Assembly: GCF_036960315.1 (NCBI RefSeq)
Contig: NZ_JBALVR010000005.1
Span: forward strand, 137,182 to 201,181
Length of the DNA stretch: 64,000 bases
From: Psychroserpens sp.
GTDB taxonomy: Bacteria; Bacteroidota; Bacteroidia; Flavobacteriales; Flavobacteriaceae
Direction of reading: 5' to 3'
Positions 13,578-32,878 of this stretch are shown piece by piece. Both the position numbers and the translations under genes were made by a program. Position 1 is the first letter of the stretch, and each line of letters begins with the position of its first letter. The notes under the pieces were generated by a model. It was given only the letters and a program-made list of their open reading frames with translations. It had not been told where the DNA came from and made no database searches.

Positions 13578-13618
13578 AATTTTTGTTTTTAAATTTATAT
13601 TGTGTTATAATTATAGTA

Positions 13619-13663
13619 CAAATTTGAGGCATATTTGAAGTTTAAAAGTTGTCATATGACAAC
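13619..13663 (-). promoter_or_regulatory. Operator palindrome plus -7-like box, site 1 (upstream of ydhR-hydrolase-DJ-1)
   Basis: GTTGTCATATGACAAC at 13648-13663 (perfect 16-bp palindrome); CAAATTTG (minus strand) at 13619-13626, 21 bp away. Confidence 0.75.
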
Positions 13664-13685
13664 GCTTTGAGCTTTATGCTTTTTT

Positions 13686-14048
13686 TTAGGACAACGCATC
13701 ATTGGTGTGCTTCATAGAACGCGTCCATAGATCTATTTGCTTTATAGCATTTGATAAATCTGTAATTTGATCATTAGAAAAGTGTGGTTCTAAAAGGGTG
13801 TGAATGCTTTCTAATTCGTCGTCGTTATTAGTACTAATGATATAATCTGTTAAAGCAAAAAGTGCGCGTTCTTTTACTGAAAAATGTGGAACGTGATTCC
13901 AAACTGACACTAGGGAAAGTCTTAAGTCTGTTTCTCCAAAATTTTTAAGCTCATTAAAGTGAAGGCTGATAGAATAGTTACAATTATTTAGGTAGCCAAT
14001 TCTAAGTCTGACTAATTCTAAATGTCGAATTTCTATGGTAGAATTCAT
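13686..14048 (-). CDS. Carboxymuconolactone decarboxylase/AhpD-like protein, short and degenerate
   Basis: LELVRLRIGYLNNCNYSISLH...GETDLRLSLVSVW...FSVKERALFALTD follows the AhpD-like fold, but CxxC is CxxS. Confidence 0.65.
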   Translation of the reverse strand: MNSTIEIRHLELVRLRIGYLNNCNYSISLHFNELKNFGETDLRLSLVSVWNHVPHFSVKERALFALTDYIISTNNDDELESIHTLLEPHFSNDQITDLSNAIKQIDLWTRSMKHTNDALS

Positions 14049-14069
14049 GTTTCTATTAGTTGTTTAAAC

Positions 14070-14098
14070 AACAACTCCGACCATGAGCCGGAGTTGTT
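14070..14098 (-). terminator. Rho-independent terminator-like hairpin after the tautomerase gene
   Basis: AACAACTCCG-N9-CGGAGTTGTT, followed on the minus strand by GTTT. Confidence 0.6.
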
Positions 14099-14122
14099 AA
14101 TACTGTTTAAATTGGTTACTTA

Positions 14123-14539
14123 TTACCCTTTAGAGATGGCTTCTCCTATTTCTTCATTAGTCATTGCAATTCCGTCTAAATTCCATCCACCATCTACGGC
14201 ATGAACAACATTTGCATAGATATTATCTTTGGGTTGTTTCCCTCCTGATAATTTATAAATGATGTCTGTAACCTCTGCAAAATGTTGTTTTTGAATAGCT
14301 CTATCTGCAAGTGCAAATGAAGGAACTTTCCATTCTGCCCATGCACCTAAGAATTCTTTACCTCCAGAAAAGGACATGCCTTTAGGTACAATATGTACAT
14401 TGGCTGTGATGTTTGGTGTCATAACGGTATTACCCGTTAAACCATGATTTTTTAAGAAGGAGTCTGTAATTTGTTGAACGGCTTTTTTTTCTGTTCCAAC
14501 AGGCAAAACACCTTCTGTTAATGTTAAAGTAAGTGGCAT
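14123..14539 (-). CDS. Tautomerase superfamily (4-oxalocrotonate tautomerase-like) protein
   Basis: N-terminal Met-Pro (catalytic Pro1), beta-alpha-beta repeat, DNIYANVVHAVDGGW. Confidence 0.75.
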   Translation of the reverse strand: MPLTLTLTEGVLPVGTEKKAVQQITDSFLKNHGLTGNTVMTPNITANVHIVPKGMSFSGGKEFLGAWAEWKVPSFALADRAIQKQHFAEVTDIIYKLSGGKQPKDNIYANVVHAVDGGWNLDGIAMTNEEIGEAISKG

Positions 14540-14585
14540 AATATAAATGTTTTAAAATTGTGAACTTTAGTGCTCATCAACAGTA

Positions 14586-14630
14586 CAAAGATGCGAGGAT
14601 ATGAAAGTTTAAAAGTTGTCATATGACAAC
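14586..14630 (-). promoter_or_regulatory. Operator palindrome plus -7-like box, site 2 (upstream of tautomerase)
   Basis: GTTGTCATATGACAAC at 14615-14630; CATCTTTG (minus strand) at 14586-14593, 21-bp gap. Confidence 0.75.
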
Positions 14631-14653
14631 GTTTTAGAAAAGCATACTTATAA

Positions 14654-15565
14654 TTACATTTTTAATTTTCGCTTTAAAATCATGGAGTAGTATGACATTT
14701 TTCTATTATTAATTTTCATTATTAGCATTCCCGAAATAATAAATAGGGCACTAATAAAATGGTATCTGTATAAATATTCATTAAAAAATACCGCAAATAG
14801 TGCCGTAAACAATGGTACCATATTCATAAAAATCCCTGCTTGATCTGCGCCCGCTTTCTGAACTGAATAATTCCAAAAGTAAAAGACAACCCCTGTTCCT
14901 AAAATCCCTAATCCGCTTATGGCGAACCAAAATTTGGTAGAATGAGATGCAATTTCTTGTATTTCAACAAAGGGCAAAAAGACCAGGATTCCAATAAGCG
15001 TAAAAAGAATTGCTAAAAAAGTGAAGCTCGTATTTTCTAATTCTGAAGAATACTTTTTCACCCAAACATGATGTAATGCAAAAAAGATATTGGCAATTAA
15101 AATTAAGACATCACTATAATTAAAGTCAATATCTTGAAAGCTGGTAATATTGCCTTTTGAAATTAGATACATAACACCTGAAAATGAAATTATAATTCCA
15201 ATTAGATGCTTTGTCTTTAATGAGGTTTTTAATATAATACTTGAAAGCAGTACTGTTATTGCAGGATTAAGACCAATTATAAGTGCTGCATTAATGGCTG
15301 AACTATTCCTTAAACCAAGAAATAAGAATACATTAAATCCAAGTAAACCAATACCGCCAACAAGGGCAGCTCCTTTTATGCTGGATCGCTTTAATTGCAA
15401 AGACTTTAAGTTTTTATATGCTAGTAGAAATAAGGTTATGCCTGCTAAAGTAAAGCGCCATGAAATAGCTTCAATAAAGCTAACTTCGGCTAACACAATT
15501 TTAGAAAGATGAAAATTTAGTCCTAAAAATAGCGTCGCAATTATAAAATAGATATTGGCTTTCAT
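14654..15565 (-). CDS. DMT/EamA family transporter
   Basis: 10 TM helices in two EamA repeats; AALIIGLNPAITVLLS, AGIFMNMVPLFTALFA. Confidence 0.88.
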   Translation of the reverse strand: MKANIYFIIATLFLGLNFHLSKIVLAEVSFIEAISWRFTLAGITLFLLAYKNLKSLQLKRSSIKGAALVGGIGLLGFNVFLFLGLRNSSAINAALIIGLNPAITVLLSSIILKTSLKTKHLIGIIISFSGVMYLISKGNITSFQDIDFNYSDVLILIANIFFALHHVWVKKYSSELENTSFTFLAILFTLIGILVFLPFVEIQEIASHSTKFWFAISGLGILGTGVVFYFWNYSVQKAGADQAGIFMNMVPLFTALFAVFFNEYLYRYHFISALFIISGMLIMKINNRKMSYYSMILKRKLKM

Positions 15566-15596
15566 GTATTATAAAATTTAAGTTTTAATAATACGT

Positions 15597-15641
15597 CAAA
15601 GTTTAGAAGATTTGAAAAAAGAAAAATGGTCTTATGACAAC
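15597..15641 (-). promoter_or_regulatory. Operator (13/16 match) plus -7-like box, site 3 (upstream of EamA)
   Basis: ATGGTCTTATGACAAC at 15626-15641; AAACTTTG (minus strand) at 15597-15604, 21-bp gap. Confidence 0.6.
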
Positions 15642-15666
15642 GCTTTCATTAGAATAGATTCAATTT

Positions 15667-16236
15667 TTAAAGTTGTGCACGCAATTTACTAAGTGTAGAG
15701 TTTGTCATACCTAAATATGACGCCACTGCTTTGCTTGAAATTCTGGTTAATAATTTGGGTTCATGTTCCATAACCCATCGCAGTTTATCTATACCTTCCA
15801 TTCCTAAAAAACTATAAATCCGCATTTGAGAGTGGATAAAAGCAAATTCCATAAATTGATTATATACATATCTAAATTCAGGAATGGTATCGATAAGTTT
15901 AAAAAAACTATCTCTGCTTATAACTAATAAATTAGAGGGTTCTGCAGATACCAAAAAGTCTCTAGATGGTTTATTAAGGACAAAACTTGTTATCGCAGAC
16001 ATAATTTGATCTTCCAACGCAAAATAACCAGTCACTTCATTCCCTTTATTGTCAATTTCATACATGCGAAGACATCCTTCATTTATAAAATAAAAGTTCT
16101 TACACACCTGTCCCGTACGGCATAATACTTCATTACGCTTTGTTTTTAAAGGTTTAAAATGCGAGGTCACTTCTTGAAGTGAAGTGTCATTAATATCGGT
16201 ACGCTCTTTTAAGTAATTTTCAAGCTGATTATACAT
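15667..16236 (-). CDS. Crp/Fnr family transcriptional regulator
   Basis: cNMP-like domain (GQVCKNFYFINEGCLRMY) and C-terminal VASYLGMTNSTLSKLR HTH. Confidence 0.9.
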   Translation of the reverse strand: MYNQLENYLKERTDINDTSLQEVTSHFKPLKTKRNEVLCRTGQVCKNFYFINEGCLRMYEIDNKGNEVTGYFALEDQIMSAITSFVLNKPSRDFLVSAEPSNLLVISRDSFFKLIDTIPEFRYVYNQFMEFAFIHSQMRIYSFLGMEGIDKLRWVMEHEPKLLTRISSKAVASYLGMTNSTLSKLRAQL

Positions 16237-16247
16237 AATGTAGTGGT

Positions 16248-16469
16248 TTACTTATTGTAAGATATCAAACTATTCCCAAAAGACAATCTAGTATTATCTT
16301 TCTCGTAAATTAATATTTTGTTTTTTGTTTTTAAAAGAACCCAAACGCTTATTCCTATAACAGCTCCCATGGCTATACTTTGTCCTAGGTCGTCAATCAC
16401 AATTCCTACAGTTATCCCAATAATAATACCTAATATTATTGTAGGGACTAAATAATTATCAATTTTCAT
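16248..16469 (-). CDS. Small hypothetical membrane protein
   Basis: 73 aa with two Gly-rich hydrophobic helices; 11 bp upstream of the Crp gene. Confidence 0.5.
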   Translation of the reverse strand: MKIDNYLVPTIILGIIIGITVGIVIDDLGQSIAMGAVIGISVWVLLKTKNKILIYEKDNTRLSFGNSLISYNK

Positions 16470-16504
16470 TGCTTCAATTTTATTAATATTTATTTATTAT
16501 TGGT

Positions 16505-16615
16505 TTATAATGTGTAATGTCTTTTAAGATTCCAACGAGCCCTTTTGCTCACGTTAGCGATTTCAAATTTCCTTTGGAAAAATGAATTCACACTTGGTGT
16601 AATGGACTGTTTCAT
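16505..16615 (-). CDS. Putative ~36-aa basic small ORF
   Basis: Hand translation MKQSITPSVNSFFQRKFEIANVSKRARWNLKRHYTL*; starts 74 bp from operator 4, comparable to the 61-76 bp at sites 1-3. Confidence 0.3.
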   Translation of the reverse strand: MKQSITPSVNSFFQRKFEIANVSKRARWNLKRHYTL

Positions 16616-16659
16616 GATTCTTTGTTTTAAGTCGTAAACTTTATTGCTCATCAACAGTA

Positions 16660-16704
16660 CAAAGATGAGAGCTTATGAAAGTGTAAAAGTTGTCATATGA
16701 CAAT
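16660..16704 (-). promoter_or_regulatory. Operator (15/16 match) plus -7-like box, site 4
   Basis: GTTGTCATATGACAAT at 16689-16704; CATCTTTG (minus strand) at 16660-16667, 21-bp gap. Confidence 0.72.
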
Positions 16705-16888
16705 GTTTTATATAGTATATTATTGAATGTGGTAAAATGCAGTCCATCTAATTTTCTTCTTTTATCACCTAGAAGTGTTATCTAAGTAAATAGATAAAAG
16801 TTGTAATCGCAAAATTTAATGATCTTCGGGATTGGTTAACCATCATACAAGAAAAATATCGCTTGTATAATTGAGCTCAATATAAAAA

Positions 16889-17040
16889 AGGGGGCCGTTT
16901 GTACCTAAATATCGTATAACAATATGGAGCAATGTGAAGTAACATAGCGTTATTAAGCTATTATTTTAATTGTCAAAATAATCATATGGAGTGTTATAGA
17001 TATATAAAGGTTTGAGCATCCATTCTAATTGCTTTCCAAT
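16889..17040 (+). repeat. att-arm repeat copy A1 (core decayed)
   Basis: ATATGGAGTGTTATAGATATATAAAGGTTTGAGCAT at 16984-17019 (33/36 to copy A2); TGTGAAGTAACATAGCGT at 16933 (13/18); core position matches only 7/13. Confidence 0.7.
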
Positions 17041-17044
17041 TTCG

Positions 17045-17158
17045 CTTGCTTTTAGCCAAAAGTAGCTTTTGGTTCTATTAAAAATCCGCTAGATTTGTAG
17101 GTGGATATATTACGAATATAACGACACCATTACCTATAAAAATACGTTGTGCTTAATT
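17045..17158 (+). repeat. 3' half of an attC-like site upstream of the GNAT gene
   Basis: AAAATCCGCTAGATTT hairpin (compare AAAATCCCCGCGGATTTT at 26540) and ACGTTGTGCT box at 17144-17153. Confidence 0.45.
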
Positions 17159-17176
17159 AAAATAAAATACTGAAAA

Positions 17177-17632
17177 ATGATTGAAAGGCTACAAAATAGC
17201 GAGTTAGAAATATCAAATCAAATACATTCTGTTTTTCAATTATCGTATGCAGTTGAAGCTAAATTATTAGATGCAACCGATTTCCCTCCTCTTAAAAGAC
17301 CCATTGAAAGTTATCTAAATAGTGATAATATGTTCTTTGGGTATCGTGAAAACAGCGAATTAGCAGGAATTATTGAGATTGAATTTAACAATAAATGTAC
17401 AGATATCAATAGTTTGGTAGTAAACCCGAAATTTTTTAGACGTGGAATAGCAAGAAAATTAATAGAATTTGTTTTCAACACATTTGATTCGAATCTTTTT
17501 GTAGTTGAAACTGGACTTGCGAATGGTCCAGCAACTAAATTATATAAGAAATTTGGTTTTATAGAAGTTAAACAATGGGATACTGACCACGGAATTAGAA
17601 AAATAAAATTTGAAAAGAGAATAAATAAATAA
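17177..17632 (+). CDS. GNAT family N-acetyltransferase
   Basis: LVVNPKFFRRGIARKLI acetyl-CoA motif A; NGPATKLYKKFGF motif B. Confidence 0.88.
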   Translation: MIERLQNSELEISNQIHSVFQLSYAVEAKLLDATDFPPLKRPIESYLNSDNMFFGYRENSELAGIIEIEFNNKCTDINSLVVNPKFFRRGIARKLIEFVFNTFDSNLFVVETGLANGPATKLYKKFGFIEVKQWDTDHGIRKIKFEKRINK

Positions 17633-17695
17633 GAACAACACCGTATAAAATTAATGGTTTAACCACGCAAAAAACCATAAACAAACACGTTGTAC
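17633..17695 (+). repeat. Short attC-like imperfect palindrome
   Basis: GAACAAC...GTTGTAC ends, inner TTAATGGTTT/AAACCATAA arms; last 32 bp are 26/32 identical to 26594-26625. Confidence 0.65.
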
Positions 17696-17744
17696 GTAAT
17701 TTAAAAAAGTTAAACGCAATAGAATTGTGAAATAATGGAGCAAA

Positions 17745-19112
17745 TTAAAATATTAATCGAATAACAGTTCCACTATTTTCAATAGAGTTAACTTGAATTT
17801 TACCTTTATGAAGAAACATAATTTGTTGACATAAGCTTAAACCAATACCACTACCCTTCTTTTTGGAACTAAAAAACGGGATAAAGATCTTATCTACTAT
17901 TTCATCTGGAATGCCTTTTCCGTTATCTGAAACCTTAATTATGACATAACCTTCGTTACTTTGTTTTGCAGAAACAGTAATTTTTGGTTGAACTGTTTCT
18001 GCGCAAGCATCAACACTATTGATTATTAAATTAATTAATACTTGTTCAATGAGTGCGGTATCCATATTAATTTGAAGCTTCTGGTTATCTATTTTAAATT
18101 GCAAGTCAATACCCTTACTTTTTAAAGAGGTCTTTAATAGATTATTAATTCCTTCAAACAGTCCTCTAACATAAACTTTGCTTGCGTTTATTGTGGTTAT
18201 TTTATTAAGTCCTCGATAGGATTTTGAAAAATTCATTAAGCCTTCGCTCCTTTTTTGTATACTATCAATACTCAAGTAAAGATCGTTAGTATCTAAAGGG
18301 TATTTCTCTGAATCTTCAATATTCAATTTAATTTCAGTTTGCAAGGTTTCGGCTAAAGAAGAAATTGGAGCAATTGAATTCATGATTTCATGCGTCATTA
18401 TATGAAGTAATTTATTCCATGCCTCGGATTGATTCTGATTTAATGTATTATCAATATTTTGTAACACAATTAACTTAAATTCCTCATTATTCATCTCAAA
18501 ATGAGCAGTGGATATTAATAGCTTCGTTTTATTTTTTTCAGTGTCTAAAGTTATTGTACTGCCATTGACATGTTGCGCTTCAAAAACAGTTTTAAAGATG
18601 CTTTGGCTTCTCTTTTTTACAAATTGAATATTTTTTAAAGTAGGGGTTTTTAAAAGTTCTTTAAATGATTCATTAATCCATATAATATCTCCGGTATTTA
18701 TGCTATAAGCCACAATACCAGTATCAATTAATTCTAATATTTTTTGCAGATACAAATATTGTTTTTCCTTATCCTTGTTAATGTCCTTGATTTTTTGATT
18801 AATGGTATTAAAACCTTGATGAAGCTCTCTAATATCTTCTGGGGCAGACCCTTCATTAAACCACTGAGAAAAATCGTTGTACTTCACAGATTCAAAAAAA
18901 TCATGCATCGATTTATGCCTCTTTATGATAAATTTAAACAGATTATTTATGACTAAAACTATAATTAAGACAATTGGAACTATAGTAATTGTAGAGATTA
19001 AAGCCTTTGTCTTAAAATCTAAAGTGAGAATGCCAAATACCAAAACCAATAGCAAACAGAAAATAGCAAGGATTCTAAGCAATAACGATAATTTATATTT
19101 CCTATAAGCCAT
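17745..19112 (-). CDS. Sensor histidine kinase
   Basis: 2 TM helices; THEIMNS H-box, QVLINLIINS N-box, DNGKGI, GSGIGLS. Confidence 0.93.
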   Translation of the reverse strand: MAYRKYKLSLLLRILAIFCLLLVLVFGILTLDFKTKALISTITIVPIVLIIVLVINNLFKFIIKRHKSMHDFFESVKYNDFSQWFNEGSAPEDIRELHQGFNTINQKIKDINKDKEKQYLYLQKILELIDTGIVAYSINTGDIIWINESFKELLKTPTLKNIQFVKKRSQSIFKTVFEAQHVNGSTITLDTEKNKTKLLISTAHFEMNNEEFKLIVLQNIDNTLNQNQSEAWNKLLHIMTHEIMNSIAPISSLAETLQTEIKLNIEDSEKYPLDTNDLYLSIDSIQKRSEGLMNFSKSYRGLNKITTINASKVYVRGLFEGINNLLKTSLKSKGIDLQFKIDNQKLQINMDTALIEQVLINLIINSVDACAETVQPKITVSAKQSNEGYVIIKVSDNGKGIPDEIVDKIFIPFFSSKKKGSGIGLSLCQQIMFLHKGKIQVNSIENSGTVIRLIF

Positions 19113-20448
19113 ATTTATTTAATCTTCTATAGAGCGACGTTCTTGTAATTCCTAATTCTTTTGCTGATTTCGAGATGTTACCATTATTTTTTTCTATCAC
19201 TTTTAATATAGTATTCTTCTCCACAGTATCTAACTTTAAGTCTTTTAATAGTGTGGTTTCTGAATAACTTTCTATGGGTGAAAACATTAAATCTGTAGCA
19301 CTTAAAACATCTGCATCCATCATGATTACTGCTCTTTCAATCGCATATTGAAGTTCACGAACGTTCCCAGGAAAATGATAATCTTCCAGTTTTTTTATAA
19401 AGCTATTATCGATAGAAATATTAGATTTAAAATATTTCTCGGTATAGACTTCAATAAAATGTTTCGCCAATAAAATAATATCTCGATCTCGATCTCTTAA
19501 AGGGGGAATAACTATTTCAACTGTATTAATACGATAAATTAAATCTTTTCTAAAATTATCTTCATTTGCCAGAGTTTCAAGACTTGAATTAGTTGCACAA
19601 ATTAACCTGATATCAACATCTATGGGCTTATTAGATCCCAATGGCGTTATTTGTCTGTTCTGAAGTACGGTTAATAATCTGGCTTGTTGATGCAGGCTAA
19701 TATTTCCAATCTCATCCAAAAATAAAGTACCCCCTTCTGCCGCTTCAAACCTACCCTGCCTATCCTCTCTTGCATCTGTAAAGGCGCCTTTTACATAACC
19801 AAATAATTCACTTTCAAATAACGATGAAGTTAATGCGCCGACGTCAACTTTTATGAAGGGCTTATCTTTTCTTAAGGAGTTGTCATGTATGGCTTTTGCA
19901 ATAAGGTCTTTTCCTGTTCCGTTTTCTCCAAGAATCAAAATATTGGCATCAGTTGGTGCGATTTTTTTAATCTTAAAGAATACCTCATTCATAGTCTTAC
20001 TTTCTCCTAAAAGCTTAACTCCATTAACATGTGGTCTCCATTTTTTTGTTTTATTGGTTATCTTATTTGCTAAAATATCAACTATAGATTCTAATAACTT
20101 TTCGTTTTTCCAAGGTTTAACCAAAAAATCTGAAGCGCCTTTTTTAAGCGCACGAACTGCTAGGTCTAAATCACCATAGGCAGTGATTAAAATAACAGCA
20201 ATGTCTTTATCTATTTCTTTAATCTTAGTGAGCCAAAAAACACCTTCATTTCCAGTATTTATAACGCTATTGTAATTCATATCTAGAATGACAACATCAA
20301 ATTTATTTTTATTTAATATTGAATTAAGGTTGTTTGGGTTTTTCTCAATAACAACCTCTTTAACCTTAGACTTTAATAGCATTTTCATAGCTATCAGTAC
20401 GTCAGTATCATCATCAATAACCAGTATGGTGGTGTTTTTCAATAACAT
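19102..20448 (-). CDS. Sigma-54-dependent response regulator (NtrC/ZraR-like)
   Basis: REC domain; GENGTGKD Walker A, ESELFGYVKGAFTDA, LFLDEIG, FPGNVREL; Fis-type HTH. Confidence 0.95.
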   Translation of the reverse strand: MLLKNTTILVIDDDTDVLIAMKMLLKSKVKEVVIEKNPNNLNSILNKNKFDVVILDMNYNSVINTGNEGVFWLTKIKEIDKDIAVILITAYGDLDLAVRALKKGASDFLVKPWKNEKLLESIVDILANKITNKTKKWRPHVNGVKLLGESKTMNEVFFKIKKIAPTDANILILGENGTGKDLIAKAIHDNSLRKDKPFIKVDVGALTSSLFESELFGYVKGAFTDAREDRQGRFEAAEGGTLFLDEIGNISLHQQARLLTVLQNRQITPLGSNKPIDVDIRLICATNSSLETLANEDNFRKDLIYRINTVEIVIPPLRDRDRDIILLAKHFIEVYTEKYFKSNISIDNSFIKKLEDYHFPGNVRELQYAIERAVIMMDADVLSATDLMFSPIESYSETTLLKDLKLDTVEKNTILKVIEKNNGNISKSAKELGITRTSLYRRLNKYGL

Positions 20449-20518
20449 ACTTACAAAAATATGATATATTAATATTCAATTGAGGTATTTAGAGGTAATA
20501 ATTTAAGAGTCTGAAAAG

Positions 20519-20625
20519 TGTCACTAAATCGCACACTAGTTGTATCAAAACCGCACACATTTTATTTTACCAAAACCTACAAGACCCTAACCAACAGTTG
20601 TTTGTGTTTCTGGCATGGTAATCAC
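20519..20625 (+). promoter_or_regulatory. Tandem enhancer-like sites and putative sigma-54 -24 box for the efflux operon
   Basis: TGT-N11-ACA boxes at 20519-20535 and 20541-20557 (22-bp spacing); TGGCAT at 20611 with a non-canonical -12 (TCAC). Confidence 0.5.
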
Positions 20626-20650
20626 ACTAGATTTATAAAATAATGTATTA

Positions 20651-21907
20651 ATGGACATACCAATTACTAAGAAAAAGTTTAGCCTACCAAAAATCGCCTT
20701 TGCTGTTGGAGCAATCCTTTTAATCTCGTTTGTAATTTACTTATCAACGTCGTTTGGAGGAAGTTCTACATTAAATATTAACACCGAACGCATTATTGTT
20801 AGCACAGTTAAGGATGGTGTGTTTCAAGAGAACATCCCTGTTAATGGAACTGTTCTACCAATTACAACAATCTATTTAGATGCGCTTGAAGGTGGTAGAG
20901 TTGAAGAAATATTTGTAGAAGATGGTGCTATTATGCAACAAGGCGAACCCATTTTACGTCTTTCTAATACCGATTTAGAATTAAACCTAGTGAATCAAGA
21001 AACTTCAGTTTACAATTTATTAACGCAAATGCAGATTTCTCAAAATGCGGCACGTGAAAACACGATAAATAAATTAAACCGAAAAACCGATGTGGAAAAT
21101 GCATTTATTGAAGCTGATAGAAAATATAACCTTAATAAATCGCTTTACCATGAAAAGGCAATAGGGAGTCAAGAATTTGAAGAAGCCAAAAATAACTATA
21201 ACTACCAAAAACAGCGTATGGAATTAGCTTTACAGGTTTTAAAACAAGATTCATTATCAACTGCTTTAGAATCTTCTCAATCCAAAAGTTCTTACACTAG
21301 AACTCAAAGTGCCTTGGCATTGATGCGTAAAAAAGTTGAAGATTTAATTGTTAGAGCACCTGTTGATGGTCAATTAACATCATTAGATGCTCAAATAGGG
21401 CAATCTAAAAATAAAGGAGAGCGCTTAGGTCAGGTAGATGTATTAAGTGGTTTTAAAATACGTGCTGATATAGACGAGAATTATATCTCAAGAATTTATC
21501 CTGGACAAAATGGAACATTCACTTTTAACGGAAAGACCTATAAATTAGTTATTAAAAAAGTATATACTCAGGTAACCAACGGCCGTTTCCAAGTAGACAT
21601 GCATTTTGAATCGGAAATACCTGAAGGTATACGCCGAGGGCAATCTTTAAGAATAAGATTAGCATTAAGCGATGAGAAGCAGGCCATATTAATTCCTAAA
21701 GGAAGCTTTTTTCAAAAAACCGGAGGTAATTGGATATTTAAACTTAGTGATGATGATAAGAGTGCCTATCGAATAGATATTCAATTAGGAAGTCAAAACA
21801 CTGAGTATTATGAAGTATTACAAGGACTTAAACCTGGCGATAAAATTATTACTTCTAGTTACCAAGACTACGGAGACAAAAACGAATTGATATTAAACAA
21901 AAAATAA
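20651..21907 (+). CDS. Efflux periplasmic adaptor subunit (HlyD/MacA family)
   Basis: N-terminal anchor, coiled coil, VRAPVDGQL, GSQNTEYYEVLQGLKPGDKII. Confidence 0.9.
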   Translation: MDIPITKKKFSLPKIAFAVGAILLISFVIYLSTSFGGSSTLNINTERIIVSTVKDGVFQENIPVNGTVLPITTIYLDALEGGRVEEIFVEDGAIMQQGEPILRLSNTDLELNLVNQETSVYNLLTQMQISQNAARENTINKLNRKTDVENAFIEADRKYNLNKSLYHEKAIGSQEFEEAKNNYNYQKQRMELALQVLKQDSLSTALESSQSKSSYTRTQSALALMRKKVEDLIVRAPVDGQLTSLDAQIGQSKNKGERLGQVDVLSGFKIRADIDENYISRIYPGQNGTFTFNGKTYKLVIKKVYTQVTNGRFQVDMHFESEIPEGIRRGQSLRIRLALSDEKQAILIPKGSFFQKTGGNWIFKLSDDDKSAYRIDIQLGSQNTEYYEVLQGLKPGDKIITSSYQDYGDKNELILNKK

Positions 21908-21912
21908 ATCTC

Positions 21913-22596
21913 ATGATAAAAATCAACAACTTAGAAAAATATTTTACTACTGAAGAATATAAAACAATTGCCCTAAATAAAATTTCATTTGAAGTAAAAA
22001 AAGGAGAGTTTGTTTCTGTCATGGGCCCTTCAGGTAGTGGTAAATCTACATTACTTAACATTTTAGGCCTTTTAGATGATGCCGATGGGGGAAGTTTCAT
22101 TTTTAATGATGAAGAGGTCATTAATTATAAAGAACGTCAGCGAGCTCATTTAAGAAAGCATAACATTGGTTTCGTATTTCAAAGCTTTAATTTAATTGAT
22201 GAACTGACCGTTTTTGAAAATGTAGAATTGGCTTTAATCTACACAGGAATAAAGAAAAGTGAACGCAAAGAAAAGGTAGACGAAGTCCTTGAAAGAATGC
22301 AAATTATGCATAGGCGAAGTCATTTTCCAACACAACTTTCTGGTGGTCAACAACAACGAGTTGCAGTTGCAAGAGCATTGGTCAATGACCCAAAACTTAT
22401 TCTGGCAGATGAACCAACAGGTAATTTGGACAGTAAAACAGGGAACGAAGTGATGGAATTACTTACCGAACTGAACAATCAAGGTTCTACAATTATTATG
22501 GTTACACATAGTGAGCATGATGCAAAATACGGGAATCGCATTATCCGCATGCTTGATGGCGAAAAAGTAACAGAGAACCTATTATCTAACTATTAA
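21913..22596 (+). CDS. ABC transporter ATP-binding protein (MacB/LolD-like)
   Basis: GPSGSGKST, LSGGQQQRVAVARAL, LADEPTGNLD, VTH. Confidence 0.95.
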   Translation: MIKINNLEKYFTTEEYKTIALNKISFEVKKGEFVSVMGPSGSGKSTLLNILGLLDDADGGSFIFNDEEVINYKERQRAHLRKHNIGFVFQSFNLIDELTVFENVELALIYTGIKKSERKEKVDEVLERMQIMHRRSHFPTQLSGGQQQRVAVARALVNDPKLILADEPTGNLDSKTGNEVMELLTELNNQGSTIIMVTHSEHDAKYGNRIIRMLDGEKVTENLLSNY

Positions 22597-22607
22597 GAAA
22601 CCTAATC

Positions 22608-24950
22608 ATGATAAAGAATTATTTTAAATTGACATGGAGAAATATTAAGGCGAATAAGGTTTTATCATTTCTCAATATTCTAGGATTGACATCTGGGTTA
22701 TTCTGTTTTTTACTTATTTATTTATGGATTTCAAGCGAAAACAGTGTCAATAAATATCACACGAATATCGATGACCTTTATTCTGTATATCTAACATCAT
22801 CTGATGGTCCAGGTTTTGGCTACGGAACACCATCACTTCTATATAAGGAATTAAAAGAAAAAGTTCCAGAAATTGAAGGTGTAGTAGCGATGTCTAATAA
22901 TAATAGAAACTACACATTCTCCAACAATAAAAAGGTTTTAAAACAAAAAGGGAAGCATGTAAGTGAAGACTATTTTAATATGTTTTCTTTTAATATTTTG
23001 GAAGGAAATGCGTCTAATGCATTAAGGAACCCAAATGATATTGCGATCTCAAAAGACATGGCAGAGTTGTTTTTTGATAATGTAAAAAGTGCTATTGGTC
23101 AAACATTAACTTTCGAAAATTCCAAAGCATTAAAAATCACCATGGTGTTTGAGTTAGGTAGTAAAAACACAACAGAAAATAGTGATTTTTATTTATCGTT
23201 TGATTCCCTTTTTGCTGAAAGTCCTTGGATGACTGATTGGAAAAACTTAGGGACGTATACGTTTGTTCAATTAACAAAAGGTGCAGATGAAAAACAAGTA
23301 GAACAAAAGTTAAAGACATTTTTAAAAGATTACGAATCAGTGAGCCTATTAGCCATAGAGCTACAACCTTATGGGGACAGTTATTTATATGCAGACCTTG
23401 AAAGTGGTAGTGGGAAAATAGAATATGTTCGTTTATTTGGAATCATTGCCTTTTTAATAATGCTAATCGCCAGTATTAATTTTATGAATTTGGCCTCTGC
23501 GGGCTCAATAAAACGAGCTAAAGAAATTGGTGTAAGAAAAGTTCTTGGAGCTGGGAAAGGTAGTTTAGTTGGTCAGTTTTTAGGAGAGGCGATACTCTTA
23601 TCATTATCAAGTTTGTTTTTTGCTTTAATTTTCATCGCCTTAGTGCTTCCGGTTTTTAATCAAATAACAGATAAGAACATTGACCTAGAAAACTTACCCA
23701 TTTCTACTTGGATAATGGTCTTACTTATTACATTGTTTACGGGAATACTATCTGGAAGTTACCCAGCATTTTTATTATCATCTTTTAAGGTAACCGATAT
23801 TTTTAAGAAGAAGATTGAAACCAGTTCCAGAACTAAATGGATTAGAAAAGCTTTGGTCGTTTTTCAATTTACAATTTCTGTTGTCTTTATAAGTTGCATG
23901 CTTATTATTTCAAAACAAATAGATTATGTTCAAAATAAAGATATCGGTTTTGAACGCGAAAATCTATTAGCAGTAACACTTTCTGAAGATTTACAGAAAA
24001 ACTATAACGCATTTAAAACAGGTGCTTTGCAAATTTCTGGGGTTAATTCGGTAACAAAAACATCACATATTTTATTAGGGGATTATGGTACCTCTCCGGA
24101 AGTAATTTGGAATGGGAAATCTGATGATGATGGTTCTTTATTTACTGGAATGGTAGGAAGTATAGACTTCATAAAAACGTATGGCGCCAAATTACTTATG
24201 GGAAGAGATCTTATTCATAATAATCCTGATAATATTGAATACTTGATTAATGAAAGCGCTATGAAACAAATGAAAATGGAAAACCCCTTAGGACAAACTA
24301 TCTCTTTTTGGGGTAATTCTGGGACGATTGTAGGTGTTGTTAAAGATTTTCACTTTAGTTCATTAAAAGAATCAATTTTCCCATTAGTCATTAGAAGTGA
24401 AGGTTATGTTGAATTTAATACTGCTTTCATTAAATATAATACAGATAATGTACAGCAAACATTGGCTTCAATTGAATCCCTTCATGCTACGCTAAATCCA
24501 GCATTCCCGTTTGAATATAAGTTTATGGATAGCGAATACAATAAATTGTATAAAAGTGAATCTACGTTTTACAAATTATCTACTTTCTTCTCAATTTTAG
24601 CAATTTTAATTTCGTGTTTAGGTCTATTTGGTTTGGTCATGTTTACAGCAGAACAAAGAACGAAAGAGATTGGCATGAGAAAAGTTGTAGGAGCATCTGT
24701 ATTTGCGATTACTTCACTTATAACACGAGACTTTATAAAGTTAATCCTATTAGGAATAGCAATCGGTATTCCAATTGCATGGTACTTCATGAATAAATGG
24801 TTAACAAACTATGAGTACAGAATAGATATGCCATGGTGGGTTTTTGTAACGACAGGATCTCTAATAATTAGCATAGCATTAGTAACGGTAAGTTTTGAAT
24901 CGATAAAGATTGCATTGGTAAATCCAATAAAAAGTTTAAAAAACGATTAA
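22608..24950 (+). CDS. ABC transporter permease (MacB/FtsX-like, duplicated)
   Basis: RAKEIGVRKVLGA and RTKEIGMRKVVGAS repeats; NPIKSLKND terminus. Confidence 0.92.
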   Translation: MIKNYFKLTWRNIKANKVLSFLNILGLTSGLFCFLLIYLWISSENSVNKYHTNIDDLYSVYLTSSDGPGFGYGTPSLLYKELKEKVPEIEGVVAMSNNNRNYTFSNNKKVLKQKGKHVSEDYFNMFSFNILEGNASNALRNPNDIAISKDMAELFFDNVKSAIGQTLTFENSKALKITMVFELGSKNTTENSDFYLSFDSLFAESPWMTDWKNLGTYTFVQLTKGADEKQVEQKLKTFLKDYESVSLLAIELQPYGDSYLYADLESGSGKIEYVRLFGIIAFLIMLIASINFMNLASAGSIKRAKEIGVRKVLGAGKGSLVGQFLGEAILLSLSSLFFALIFIALVLPVFNQITDKNIDLENLPISTWIMVLLITLFTGILSGSYPAFLLSSFKVTDIFKKKIETSSRTKWIRKALVVFQFTISVVFISCMLIISKQIDYVQNKDIGFERENLLAVTLSEDLQKNYNAFKTGALQISGVNSVTKTSHILLGDYGTSPEVIWNGKSDDDGSLFTGMVGSIDFIKTYGAKLLMGRDLIHNNPDNIEYLINESAMKQMKMENPLGQTISFWGNSGTIVGVVKDFHFSSLKESIFPLVIRSEGYVEFNTAFIKYNTDNVQQTLASIESLHATLNPAFPFEYKFMDSEYNKLYKSESTFYKLSTFFSILAILISCLGLFGLVMFTAEQRTKEIGMRKVVGASVFAITSLITRDFIKLILLGIAIGIPIAWYFMNKWLTNYEYRIDMPWWVFVTTGSLIISIALVTVSFESIKIALVNPIKSLKND

Positions 24951-24976
24951 GGTACAATTCATATAATTTAATAATT

Positions 24977-26401
24977 ATGAACAAAAGGATAACACTAGTT
25001 ATAGGTCTTTGGTTGGGTGTGATTAGTTTTGGTTTTTCTCAAAGCACATCAACAACCATATATACCTTACAGGATTGTATCGATATTGCGATTGAAAATA
25101 ATCTTGACTTAAAAATTAAAGAATTAAGAGCAAAATCTTCTGAGGTAAACTTTAAAGAGAATAGAAACAAAATACTCCCTAGTTTAAATATGAATTATAA
25201 CCTAGGAATTAATAATGGTAGAAGTATTGACCCCTTTACAAATAGTTTTATAAATCAGGGCCTTACATTTTCAAATGCAGGTTTAAGTCTAGACGCAACC
25301 ATCTTTAATGGCTTTAGAATCAAAAATGAGATTAAGCAAAGTCGATTTAATCTGCAGGCTTCGGAAATGGAAATTGAAGAAGCTAAGCAAAATTTAACAC
25401 TTGACGTCACGCTTTTATATATCCAAATTTTGAATAATAAAGATTTATTAGAACTTTCAAAAGCGAGACTCAAAACGACTGAAGTTCAGCTTAAAAGATT
25501 AGAATCACTATATAACAATGGTGTAGGTAACCCTGCCTCTTTTACAGATATGCAAGGACAATTTACGAGAGATCAAACGGGTAATATTACCGCTGAGAAC
25601 AATTTAAAATCGGCAGTTTTAAATCTAGTTAAGCTGTTAAGCATAGATGTCGATTCTGAGAATGAGTTCGAAAATGTTTTTGAAATTATTAATCCAGAAA
25701 AGTATCAAATTTCTGCTAATGATATTTATAATGATGCGCTTGAAAATTTAGCCACCTTTAAATCAAAACAATTGCGAGTTGATGCTGCAAAAACCGGAAT
25801 TAAAATTGCCAGATCTAATTACTTTCCTGAGGTATCGCTGTTTGGGCAATTAAACACAAACTATTCTAGTGTCGCGCAACTATTTACACAAACAGGAACG
25901 TCTACTGTTGAAACGGGAGACTTTGTTTCTATTAGTGGCCAAGAACATGCTGTTTTGCGAAATGAGGCTCAATTTGAAGGCTCTAAAATCAACCATAAAG
26001 ACCAATTTGATAACAACCTTAATTCTGTGATTGGAATAGCAGTCAGAGTTCCTATATTTAATGGTTTCCGAGCTAAAAATAAAATAAGAATTGAGAAAAT
26101 ACAACATGAAGAAGCCCAAGTAAATTTGAAGCAAACTCAGTTTGTTTTTAAACAATCTATTTATGAAGCCTATAATAATATGGAGGCTTCCTTTAAGGTA
26201 TATCAGGTTTTAAAAAATCAGGTAGTTGCATATGAAGAGTCGTTTCGTGTTAACGAAGTGAGGTTTAATAATGGCGTTTCAAATATTGTAGAATACATAA
26301 CATCAAAGAATAATATGGAGGCTTCCAAATTAAATTTAAGCCAAACCAAGTATGAGTATTTACTACGCGTTAAAATATTAGATTACTACAGAGGAATTTA
26401 A
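24977..26401 (+). CDS. TolC family outer-membrane efflux protein
   Basis: Signal peptide; TLQDCIDIAIENNL, two OEP repeats, RFNNGVSN. Confidence 0.9.
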   Translation: MNKRITLVIGLWLGVISFGFSQSTSTTIYTLQDCIDIAIENNLDLKIKELRAKSSEVNFKENRNKILPSLNMNYNLGINNGRSIDPFTNSFINQGLTFSNAGLSLDATIFNGFRIKNEIKQSRFNLQASEMEIEEAKQNLTLDVTLLYIQILNNKDLLELSKARLKTTEVQLKRLESLYNNGVGNPASFTDMQGQFTRDQTGNITAENNLKSAVLNLVKLLSIDVDSENEFENVFEIINPEKYQISANDIYNDALENLATFKSKQLRVDAAKTGIKIARSNYFPEVSLFGQLNTNYSSVAQLFTQTGTSTVETGDFVSISGQEHAVLRNEAQFEGSKINHKDQFDNNLNSVIGIAVRVPIFNGFRAKNKIRIEKIQHEEAQVNLKQTQFVFKQSIYEAYNNMEASFKVYQVLKNQVVAYEESFRVNEVRFNNGVSNIVEYITSKNNMEASKLNLSQTKYEYLLRVKILDYYRGI

Positions 26402-26494
26402 AAAACAACTGCTTTAAGTAACAAAAGACAAAAACCAGGAATTATATTCAGAAATTTTTAAAGGATATAACTTCGAATCGAAGTAAAAAACCAA

Positions 26495-26625
26495 GTACAA
26501 CAACGCGTATAATTCATTGCTAGTTCTTGCCTACTTACGAAAATCCCCGCGGATTTTATATTCGGGTTTTATTTACTAAATTAGTTGCATAAACACGCAA
26601 CTAACCATACACAGAAACGTTGTAG
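26495..26625 (+). repeat. Long (131-bp) attC-like imperfect palindrome
   Basis: GTACAAC AACGCGTATAA...CACGCAACTAACCATACACAGAAAC GTTGTAG; central AAAATCC-CCGC-GGATTTT hairpin; both ends homologous to 17633-17695. Confidence 0.7.
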
Positions 26626-26650
26626 GTTATTTTACTTAGTAAAACAAAAA

Positions 26651-27904
26651 ATGAAACAGTATATCAAATTCATATTACCAGTTCTGATGATTTCTTTCTC
26701 CTATCAGATCATAGCTCAAAATGTTGGCGACAAACTTCCTGAATGGACCCATGGAACTTTGGATATACACGAGATAAGTACAGGGAGAGGGTCTTCTACA
26801 TTTTTTATAATGCCAGATGGTACTACTATGCTTTATGATGTAGGGGAAGTCACAGAAATTACAGATCCCAAGAGAGTTCCTAGGTACGTAGACGCAAAAC
26901 CTGATTCTACCAGAGCTGCAGGTGAATGGATTATCCGTTATATTGAACCCCTTTTGAAACAAACGCGCGCGCGTCAAATTGATTATGCTCTGATTTCCCA
27001 TTTTCATTGGGATCACATGGGACAAATCACAGATAATTCACCCCAATCTAAGTATGGTCCCTATAAACAGGCCGGCATCACCAGAGTTGCGGAACAAATC
27101 CCTATAAAAACTATTTTTGATCGAGGATGGCCGGATTATAATTATCCAGTGGAGCAAAGCAATCCCACAATACTTAATTACCGCGCTTTTCTTAATTCCC
27201 AAATTGAAACCAATAAGATGAAGGTTGCAAGGTTTCAACCTGGGAGTAATGAACAAATTGTTTTGCAATATAAACCCAAAGACTATCCAGGGTTTGAAGT
27301 AAGAAACCTTGCCGCAAATGGGGAGGTTTGGACTGGAGTGAGCAATGTGACACGTAGCCATTATCCGCCACTTGATGATCTTGAAAAAGAGGACTATCCA
27401 GATGAAAACATGTGTAGTATTGCCCTACGGCTTAGCTATGGTAAGTTTGACTATTTTACCGGCGGTGATATTCGGGGTATCCCTCGGATTGGATCAGCTA
27501 ATTGGCAGGATCTTGAAACCCCAATTGCCCAGGCAATCGGACCTGTCGAGGTCAGCCTTCTCAACCACCATGGCTATATAGATTCTCAAAACACCTTTTT
27601 TGTGAGCACGCTTCGTCCTCAAGTGTGGCTACTTTCTGTTTGGGATTCAGCCCATCCAAGCCCAATGGTATATAAACGATTGCTATCTGAAGAGCTTTAT
27701 CCTGGCCCGCGGGATATTTTTTCGACCGGAATGCACGAAGCAAACAAATTAGTGGCTGTTGGGCTTGACAAACTAGCCAGTGATCAGGGACATATTGTCC
27801 TCCGTGTTGCGCCAGGGGGAAATACTTTCCAGATAATAGTTCTAGATGATAATGTGGAAAACAGTAAAATAAAATCTATCCATGGACCGTATAATTGTCG
27901 ATAA
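26651..27904 (+). CDS. Secreted metallo-beta-lactamase-fold hydrolase (ComEC/Rec2-like)
   Basis: Signal peptide from ATG 26651; SHFHWDHMG (HxHxDH), FTGGDI, LNHHG. Confidence 0.8.
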   Translation: MKQYIKFILPVLMISFSYQIIAQNVGDKLPEWTHGTLDIHEISTGRGSSTFFIMPDGTTMLYDVGEVTEITDPKRVPRYVDAKPDSTRAAGEWIIRYIEPLLKQTRARQIDYALISHFHWDHMGQITDNSPQSKYGPYKQAGITRVAEQIPIKTIFDRGWPDYNYPVEQSNPTILNYRAFLNSQIETNKMKVARFQPGSNEQIVLQYKPKDYPGFEVRNLAANGEVWTGVSNVTRSHYPPLDDLEKEDYPDENMCSIALRLSYGKFDYFTGGDIRGIPRIGSANWQDLETPIAQAIGPVEVSLLNHHGYIDSQNTFFVSTLRPQVWLLSVWDSAHPSPMVYKRLLSEELYPGPRDIFSTGMHEANKLVAVGLDKLASDQGHIVLRVAPGGNTFQIIVLDDNVENSKIKSIHGPYNCR

Positions 27905-29754: not shown

Positions 29755-29923
29755 ATACTCTTCTGAAAACTCAACTTTTCATAAACAGATATTTAACAGA
29801 ACTCACTCAACACTTCCAAAAAACATAAAAGAAGAGAATGAGATAAAAACACTAAACAACTCAATTTGTTCGACCCAAACAAAATAAAAAAGCCCCACAT
29901 CTCTGCAAGGCTTAATTTTACTT

Positions 29924-30070
29924 GTGGTCCCACTTGTTCTACGTTATAATATAGTAAGAAAGAGTAATGTGGAGTAATACGGAGTAATCGAGTAATATTT
30001 TGAGTGCCGAAATAGTAATATGGAGTAGTATAGATGTATAAAGGTTTGAGCATCGATCAAAATATTGACT
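29924..30070 (+). repeat. att-arm repeat copy A2 beginning with the tRNA 3'-end duplicate
   Basis: GTGGTCCCACTTG (29924-29936) equals 52789-52801; TGTGGAGTAATACGGAGT at +44; 36-bp ATATGGAGT...GGTTTGAGCAT box at +94. Confidence 0.85.
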
Positions 30071-32688: not shown

Positions 32689-32714
32689 AAAGCCCTTCTA
32701 AAAAGAAGGGCTTT
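32689..32714. terminator. Bidirectional terminator-like hairpin
   Basis: AAAGCCCTTCT-AAAA-AGAAGGGCTTT, perfect 11-bp stem, just before the tRNA 3'-end duplicate. Confidence 0.75.
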
Positions 32715-32718
32715 AAGT

Positions 32719-32878
32719 GTGGTCCCACTTGGAATACTATATATTATAGTAATGTATAGTGTTGTGGAGTAATACGGAGTTTTCAATATACTATAGCTAT
32801 CTCAAAATAGTGATATGGAGTAGTATGGATGCATAAAGGTTTGAGCATTGATTTATCCATCTTTTATTGCTTTCAAAT
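32719..32878 (+). repeat. att-arm repeat copy A3 beginning with the tRNA 3'-end duplicate
   Basis: GTGGTCCCACTTGG (32719-32732) equals 52789-52802; 18-mer at +44 identical to A2; 36-mer at +94 is 34/36 to A2. Confidence 0.85.

Follow-up and report, generated by a model that had tools for sequence, protein, structure and literature searches.

The segment at 17147-17689 of the DNA analysed here, a promoterless ORF for a GNAT-family N-acetyltransferase joined to an attC-type site, reads as a cassette of an integron-like capture system present in Flavobacteriaceae and other Bacteroidota, an interpretation of sequence data in which we have strong confidence. The window, by which we mean the whole 64,000-nt stretch of Psychroserpens sp. 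DNA that was analysed, corresponds to C30:137182-201181 within a 4.25-Mb assembly of 34 contigs. Taken alone, the signals at the locus are weak: the upstream junction scored E = 0.57, the complementarity of the cassette's own ends exceeds that with the adjacent box by one base, and the downstream site folds like shuffled sequence. The significance of the locus comes from a genome-wide family of attC-like sites and from orthologous cassettes in other genera, and what makes it interesting is mainly the system to which the GNAT cassette points.

A first-pass annotation of the window had proposed a cassette on the basis of a box at 17146 upstream of the gene, a box at 17627-17639 that is an 11/13 reverse complement of the first, and a gap of only 24 bp between the upstream core and the ATG, all of which were reproduced. 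The features of the locus, with the second site in the window, are listed here; the ends of the cassette were set by the boundary rule derived from 52 array cassettes (see below).

17068..17097, + strand: candidate promoter of the Bacteroidota type (TTTG, 18 nt, TAGATTTG), outside the cassette and 79 bp before the GNAT ATG
17140..17164, + strand: R'-type junction AAATAC-GTT-GTGCTTAATTAAAATA, with GTT at 17146-17148 and T17147 as the first cassette base
17146-17158: upstream box GTTGTGCTTAATT, from direct sequence inspection
17147..17689, + strand: predicted cassette carrying the GNAT gene, 543 bp, beginning with the TT of the upstream GTT and ending with the G of the downstream one
17177..17632, + strand: GNAT-family N-acetyltransferase ORF, 151 aa, with Pfam GNAT models above their cut-offs
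17627-17639: box AAATAAGAACAAC, overlapping the TAA stop codon (17630-17632) and 11/13 reverse complementary to GTTGTGCTTAATT
17628..17701, + strand: short attC-like site, right half E = 6e-7, centre of the 135-bp consensus deleted; it consists of variable R'' (17628-17636), AAC (17637-17639), spacer ACC, L'' (~17643-17657), a small loop, L' (~17675-17682), a spacer, R' GTT (17689-17691) and the leader of the next 'cassette' (to 17701)
17689-17697: box GTTGTACGT on the downstream R' side
26489..26634, + strand: full-length attC-like site, ~135 bp, solitary, profile E = 1e-26, following the last gene of an efflux operon

The ORF scored above the curated cut-offs of PF13673 (48.8 bits), PF00583 (46.6 bits) and PF13508 (39.9 bits); it received no equivalog-level assignment, the best named relatives being RimI-like and far under the cut-off. 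Its ATG at 17177 lies 24 bp from the 7-bp core and 31 bp from the GTT. The cassette measures 543 bp, its leader 31 nt and the distance between the stop codon and the AAC end 7 nt, values that fall within the size distributions seen in arrays, where a stop codon that overlaps R'' is typical and where the GTGCTTAAT leader of the GNAT junction is also present.

Cassette boxes had been proposed on both flanks. An R'-type junction does exist upstream, but tested alone against the family profile it was not significant, and L''/L' or R'' could not be recognised upstream of it, so that this element is not a full attC. Neither a recombinase remnant (tblastn) nor an attI-like arrangement was found upstream of the gene. 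The 120 bp preceding the cassette are unique in the genome, and the small palindrome that they contain is placed unlike the palindromes of the attI-like sites described below. The candidate promoter at 17068-17097 could drive the promoterless GNAT cassette, a prediction that is no more than a hint; the pattern TTTG-N17-21-TANNTTTG, which we take to be the consensus of Bacteroides and Flavobacterium promoters, occurs six times in the window versus 4.7 expected and is not enriched.

The first-pass annotation had also described the downstream site as homologous to 26495-26625. Using a family profile built on 78 genome copies, we found this to hold for the right half (17660-17707), while the left half (17633-17660) matched only weakly (E = 0.28) and ~68 central model positions are absent. 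Because these positions are missing and the site of the orthologue in G183 (see below) is full-length, we infer that the GNAT site is an internally deleted short copy of the family. The short site, of 63-70 bp, was indistinguishable from shuffles when folded on either strand (z = -0.5 to -0.8), and thus single-site folding proves nothing, while the site at 26489-26634 gave z = -2.3 to -2.4 on both strands. No run of T follows the GNAT-site hairpin. The reported preference of the inner box for the cassette's own 5´ end (8/9) over the adjacent box (7/9) could be recovered as a count, being 7/9 versus 6/9 in the family register, but a difference of one base does not discriminate. The window contains just these two family sites, 9 kb apart, and no recombinase remnant detectable by tblastn, in agreement with the initial report that it lacks IntI, and an Rfam search over 16500-27000 returned zero family matches. 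The GNAT cassette is solitary, with no array around it, and lies next to a genomic-island arm repeat on a large contig of the chromosome.

When half-site profiles were iterated over the genome (E <= 0.01), 148 attC-like sites were detected, of which 134 fall in 25 clusters and 14, including both window sites, are solitary. The small contigs C8, C14, C6 and C10 are arrays throughout, C4, C28, C33, C2 and C3 have an array at their ends, and many of the 34 contigs break inside arrays. Most of the sites are 134-138 bp long, with the consensus (variable)AAC-AAC-GTGTATAATTAATTGCT, then ~75 nt of few sequence types, then CGCAACTAACCATACAC-AAACAC-GTT(variable). In total, 81 paired sites were aligned; in a separate count of half-sites, AAC was present in 108/114 readable left halves and GTT in 103 right halves. 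Only AAC and GTT are conserved as a core, and the bases that follow vary (GTTGT, GTTAG, GTTGG, GTTAC, GTTAT); of the G/TTGT core originally described, the GTT is thus confirmed, but the 'GT' represents one variable class.

The 82 intervals between sites give a median cassette of 875 bp, with the longest ORF on the strand of the site in 68/82 and covering 88% of the interval, which is the single-gene spacing that a genome scan had been expected to reveal. The array cassettes have a median leader of 37 nt, and their stop codon lies ~15 nt ahead of the AAC end. Copies lacking a consistent orientation relative to upstream stop codons would, according to the first-pass annotation, have refuted the cassette reading; instead, none of the 25 clusters mixes strands and the sites lie ~15 nt past co-oriented stops. 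Scanning of 10 cassette proteins gave two GNATs, RibD_C, DUF6090 and DNA_alkylation, and five proteins without a family. Two GNATs in addition to the one in the window are cassettes in the genome's own C8 array, as anticipated from the idea that GNATs are common cassette cargo. We also noted a membrane-anchored DUF6090 family, starting MIKFFRKIR..., in at least four diverged cassettes (C34:39760-40534, C28:8874-9677, C6:20532-21368 and C6:30163-30957); other cargo includes RibD_C/DHFR-like and DNA-alkylation-repair proteins and, by eye, MBL-fold and serine-hydrolase-like proteins.

In integrons, crossover takes place in the GTT core, such that the bases past GTT belong to the next cassette and R'' is complementary to the start of the cassette that it terminates. 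To test this, we took the 9 nt ahead of AAC at 52 consecutive site pairs, reverse-complemented them and compared them with the 9 nt behind the previous GTT (the cassette's own 5´ end) and with the 9 nt after the site's own GTT (the adjacent box). The own 5´ end matched at 6.1/9, with 75-85% agreement at each of positions 1-6, compared to 3.4/9 for the adjacent box and 3.1/9 for random pairs (Wilcoxon p = 4.6e-7 for the own-end preference, n = 52). A lack of core complementarity among genome-wide copies, which had likewise been put forward as grounds for rejecting a cassette, was thus not observed. Position 8 of the R box after GTT was complementary to R'' in 0/52 cases, while positions 1-6 and 9 pair. 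The sites are also asymmetric in folding, the bottom strand being more stable in 68/78 (p = 2e-12). The L helix spans 16 columns; at three of its positions, 42-63 of the 81 sites show A.C on the top strand and hence G.T on the bottom strand, and two positions covary (TA/GC and GC/CG). No conserved bulged or extrahelical bases, the latter a requirement of classical IntI, were evident in the L-helix alignment of the 81 sites.

The distribution of the GNAT gene is patchy, with one carrier among the 18 genomes of a first same-genus draw and 31 among 400 genomes of the family. In the congener (G005), the copy has 61% amino acid identity and lies between decayed attC-like sites in a decayed array. 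The closest orthologues, however, were found in two other genera (G183, 76% amino acid identity; G082, 74%). For both, DNA homology starts exactly at TTGTGCTTAATT and runs from the core TT through the ORF into the attC; the alignments begin TTGTGCTTAATTAAA / TTCTTAATTAAA, and the DNA further upstream is unrelated. The base ahead of TT is G here and A in G183 and G082, as expected from a crossover between G and TT. G183 retains a full ~135-bp site of the type found at 26489-26634. Because the DNA of the orthologues is shared solely from the core TT to the attC, we infer that the unit of inheritance is the cassette and that the GNAT unit has moved between contexts. The presence of the same flanks around GNAT homologues elsewhere, on which the first-pass annotation had staked its reading, was confirmed for the nearest homologues, but more distant ones have no attC flanks. 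We were not able to show an empty site in 20 same-genus genomes; the flanks are non-syntenic, with the histidine-kinase flank ~65% identical elsewhere and the Crp-like flank present in one genome.

As for the enzyme, no protein of the 99.9%-complete genome exceeded the cut-off of 265 for the integron integrase model TIGR02249. The two best matches are intact genes at the very starts of C9 (388 aa) and C34 (375 aa), with whole-protein scores of 218.6 and 193.9 bits. Both proteins align to TIGR02249 positions 1-181 and 240-313 only, lacking the IntI insertion, and pass the XerA-type model NF040815. Compared to VchIntIA (PDB 2a3v), there are 24 residues where the integrase has 67, leaving VchIntIA residues 180-246 without a counterpart. 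An AlphaFold model (pLDDT 84) likewise predicts a Xer/IntI-like two-domain core with no extra element at the place of the IntI insertion, as well as an added, confident N-terminal domain (beta-beta-alpha-beta-beta-alpha-beta, ~77 residues as modelled, the extra domain being put at ~95 aa overall) that is left uncovered by the best structural matches. The catalytic residues R235, K260, H324, R327, H350 and Y359 are invariant in 26 homologues. Ordinary XerC/D-sized genes are found separately in the genome, on C33 and C11. The result was the same in five other genomes; in four complete same-genus genomes, all carrying the sites, there was again no TIGR02249 match above the cut-off, and the best matches were always array-head Xer-like genes.

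Past the stop codons of both the C9 and the C34 gene, at a distance of 27-40 bp, we found a GTT and the first cassette on the same strand, and the R'' of the first cassette matched the array-head junction at 8/9 (C34) and 7/9 (C9). Behind the C34-type gene of related genera come, in this order, a palindrome, CCAATTGTT and the first cassette, and the palindrome plus CCAATTGTT looks like a conserved attI-like site, as judged from this arrangement. The same design, comprising a palindrome whose arms measure 8-10 bp, (C)CAATTGTT (variants CACTTGTT and CCATACGTT) and the leader of the first cassette, was seen right past the recombinase stop at L011, L012, L017, L021, L026, L030 and L035 as well as at G000 C34:640-720. 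Array-head recombinase genes are present in one to three copies per genome, some of them pseudogenes, and always abut cassette arrays.

Homologues of the recombinase with 37-83% identity were detected in Flavobacteriaceae, Cyclobacteriaceae, Prolixibacteraceae, Marinilabiliaceae and Bacteroidales (39-45% identity for the last), and many of the contigs end shortly past the gene. Linkage to sites is conserved in nine other genera. Same-strand sites of the same or related families lie behind the gene in Winogradskyella, Aquimarina, Seonamhaeicola, Polaribacter, Mariniflexile, Maribacter and Arenibacter, and same-strand sites were also found behind it in another Flavobacteriaceae strain and a Cyclobacteriaceae MAG. 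In the complete same-genus genomes G004, G009 and G032, every recombinase copy found has same-strand sites just downstream, the exception being a weak, XerC/D-sized match in G032. The array in G004 would be among the largest cassette arrays known: the recombinase gene is located at 1,836,351-1,837,421, matches to the L'' motif begin at 1,838,283, and the genome contains 276 forward and five reverse matches, compared to 0 for a control pattern. The listed L'' matches nearly all fall within 1,838,283-1,929,217, while right-half matches extend to 2.07 Mb (G004:C1:1836351-2073255). G009 carries two near-identical C34-type recombinase copies (G009:C1:140094-141212 and 180299-181417), each with one in-frame stop (TGA and TAA), that still head arrays and look, from their sequences, like duplicated, inactivated array heads.

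A partner tyrosine recombinase had been called for to accompany the repeat. Xer-like genes at array heads on other contigs are candidates for this role, but they are not IntI, and their link to the sites is inferred from position only; recombination itself has not been observed. What the sequence statistics do show is how the sites are built, where cassettes begin and end, that ORFs and sites share an orientation, that folding is asymmetric between strands, that the recombinase is linked to the sites by position and that the GNAT unit has moved between contexts. Collectively, the 148 sites, the boundary rule and the orthologous cassettes bear out the original inference of an integron-like cassette system in a Bacteroidota genome.

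We considered whether the same observations could be explained without such a system or such a cassette. That the GNAT gene is a resident of the chromosome, the solo site behind it a remnant and the upstream GTT box a chance match is a reading that draws on the non-significant upstream junction (E = 0.57), on how common GTGCTTAAT-type leaders and GTT are in AT-rich DNA and on the many distant GNAT homologues outside cassettes. However, similarity to G183 (76%) and G082 (74%) begins right past the core, with unrelated DNA upstream, the gene is present in only one of the 18 same-genus genomes of the first draw, where it lies in a decayed array, and the 31-nt leader and the stop overlapping R'' fit array cassettes, and we therefore consider a resident gene unlikely.

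A REP/MITE-like or terminator-like intergenic repeat that has nothing to do with cassette recombination, and is behind the GNAT gene only incidentally, would account for a structured, multi-copy intergenic palindrome with 14 solitary copies, two of them in the window, and a hairpin just past a stop codon could serve as a terminator. It would not account for an outer box that complements the previous copy, ~0.9 kb upstream, and not its own partner arm, nor for the strict co-orientation with ORFs. Such a repeat would also not be expected to start directly behind a conserved recombinase gene in many genera or to travel with the same GNAT gene into unrelated contexts, and a terminator hairpin would be followed by a run of T, which is missing. 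We give this explanation very little weight, and a REP/MITE-type repeat is excluded by the boundary rule, the cassette anatomy and the strand asymmetry. Even less room is left for a classical integron with ordinary attC sites whose canonical IntI is encoded elsewhere or lost in an assembly gap. The site architecture and boundary rule are exactly those of integrons, and the assembly is in 34 contigs with many breaks inside arrays, but the best TIGR02249 score was 218.6 against a cut-off of 265 bits in a 99.9%-complete genome, no protein passed in four complete same-genus genomes with sites, and the best matches were always array-head Xer-like genes without the IntI insertion, both by alignment and in the predicted structure.

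We therefore return to the cassette reading, for which the following mechanism is proposed. The Xer-like tyrosine recombinase, with its full R-K-H-R-H-Y set, would catalyse both excision and insertion, acting on the folded bottom strand to recombine attC with an attI-like site or with another attC; these activities are inferred, as is a role of the N-terminal domain in place of the absent IntI insertion. After circularisation, the R'' outer box would pair with the first bases of the same cassette. The recombinase gene would head each array, co-oriented with the cassettes, with the attI-like junction 27-40 bp past its stop. Integrons of the 'inverted-integrase' type also have intI co-oriented with the cassettes. 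Insertion at secondary sites is a known route for classical cassettes, and the GNAT cassette was most likely inserted, or left behind, at a secondary GTT site, or else may be the last survivor of a small array. It would have lost the middle of its attC after arrival, such that mobility is now inefficient, while transcription from a flanking promoter remains possible. Because the attC is internally deleted and only an R' junction is present upstream, the GNAT copy is probably a fossil that is no longer efficiently mobile.

More broadly, we think it probable, with somewhat less assurance than for the cassette itself, that Flavobacteriaceae and the wider Bacteroidota harbour a second integron lineage, which would share the G|TT logic, use a Xer-like recombinase, include rAID-1 as one branch and have the GNAT cassette as a stray member. 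The recombinase of such a lineage would have lost the IntI insertion, or never possessed it, and may recognise a bottom-strand hairpin that is paired throughout, aided by its new N-terminal domain. Like sedentary chromosomal integrons, the system has co-oriented, mostly single-ORF promoterless cassettes in arrays of up to hundreds, with GNATs as frequent cargo and solitary cassettes outside arrays. Its sites are likewise imperfect palindromes, built of AAC...GTT outer boxes and an inner L helix with an unpaired spacer between them, in which R'' complements the cassette's own first bases (crossover G|TT) and the bottom strand folds better. Unlike in integrons, the recombinase lacks the IntI insertion, which binds extrahelical bases, is nearest to archaeal XerA and carries a further domain at its N-terminus; the sites, at ~135 bp, are long and of few conserved types, with a bottom-strand L helix made continuous by G.T wobbles; the R box is at least 9 bp with one never-pairing position; and the attI-like site lies 3´ of the recombinase gene. 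By both sequence and fold, the array-head proteins best match Xer/dif recombinases (XerC/D and archaeal XerA; PDB 5hxy, 4a8e), with which they share the insertion-free two-domain core; they differ in the added N-terminal domain and in occurring one to three per genome, always at cassette arrays. In contrast to REP/MITE elements, the copies are not independent of gene orientation, and their outer boxes pair with the start of their own cassette.

IntegronFinder distinguishes CALIN elements and solitary attC sites (Cury et al. 2016, PMC4889954; IntegronFinder 2.0, bioRxiv 10.1101/2022.02.28.482270), and the two window sites, being attC-like without a nearby integrase, fit the definition of the solitary attC/CALIN class. 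Reviews list Bacteroidota among the integron-bearing phyla; previously only In0 elements were reported for the phylum, and now one complete integron, in Salinibacter (IntegronFinder 2.0, bioRxiv 10.1101/2022.02.28.482270). Of the systems in the literature, rAID-1 of gut Bacteroidales comes closest: an XerD-like recombinase is accompanied by short genes in a common orientation and by conserved repeats between genes, which its authors describe as 'reminiscent of integrons' (Ross et al. 2019, bioRxiv 10.1101/471110; PMC12247911). rAID-1 is defined by immunity-gene cargo, a G+C content of <= 41%, a recombinase with an identity of >= 44% to B. fragilis BF9343_RS08045, and a 5´ recombinase followed by at least two co-directional short genes with conserved intergenic motifs; its biogenesis was called unresolved in a 2025 paper, and the site structure, crossover point and strand are undescribed (bioRxiv 10.1101/471110; PMC12247911). 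Co-directional downstream genes with conserved intergenic motifs are present in the arrays here, and Bacteroidales have homologues of the array-head protein (39-45% identity). The cargo here is, however, broad (GNATs, RibD/DHFR-like, DUF6090, DNA-alkylation repair and many proteins without a Pfam match), the hosts are marine Flavobacteriaceae and the arrays reach hundreds of cassettes. Beyond rAID-1, we found no description in the literature on Flavobacteriaceae of the site structure, the boundary rule or flavobacterial arrays.

Integron surveys rely on the IntI insertion and one attC covariance model, by which Bacteroidota appear nearly integron-free. Because the array-head recombinase lacks the domain that defines integron integrases, standard surveys would miss the system, although one flavobacterial genome has ~150 cassette sites and a congener ~276 in one array, served by a recombinase of the kind that surveys discard. 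Should the recombinase be confirmed, the IntI insertion would not be required for cassette recombination at folded sites, and the choice of strand and orientation could be compared in the absence of extrahelical bases. The system, if real, would also offer a mechanistic basis for the building of rAID clusters and represent a very large mobile pool of accessory genes (acetyltransferases, hydrolases, DHFR-like proteins) in marine polysaccharide degraders, with arrays of up to ~276 sites over ~90-235 kb in one congener, more than in the Vibrio cholerae superintegron. What the GNAT locus adds is that the chromosome also receives such cassettes individually.

Several other features of the window were noted. 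The 8.8-kb block between the two sites (17689-26634) contains a histidine kinase, a sigma-54 response regulator and the efflux operon. Its bounding boxes are 6/9 complementary, with agreement at five of the first six positions (GTACGT vs GTACTT), the pattern expected of one giant 'cassette'; this is non-significant alone, and the block has genes on both strands. An arm repeat of ~140 bp, assigned in the first-pass annotation to the ends of tRNA-linked island modules, is present at 16889-17023, 29917-30057 and 32712-32852; the similarity stops at ~17023, ~120 bp short of the GNAT cassette junction. A decayed attC was considered for the intervening DNA upstream of GNAT and rejected, as 17024-17139 matches neither the island-arm repeat nor the attC profile. 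Finally, a 54-86 bp repeat with the perfect palindrome GTTGTCATATGACAAC recurs at ~1-kb spacing over 13615-16710, preceding four consecutive minus-strand transcription units, among whose products are an EamA transporter and a Crp-like regulator that binds cNMP. Because there are only five copies genome-wide, this repeat is probably an operator for the Crp-like regulator that lies outside the cassette system.
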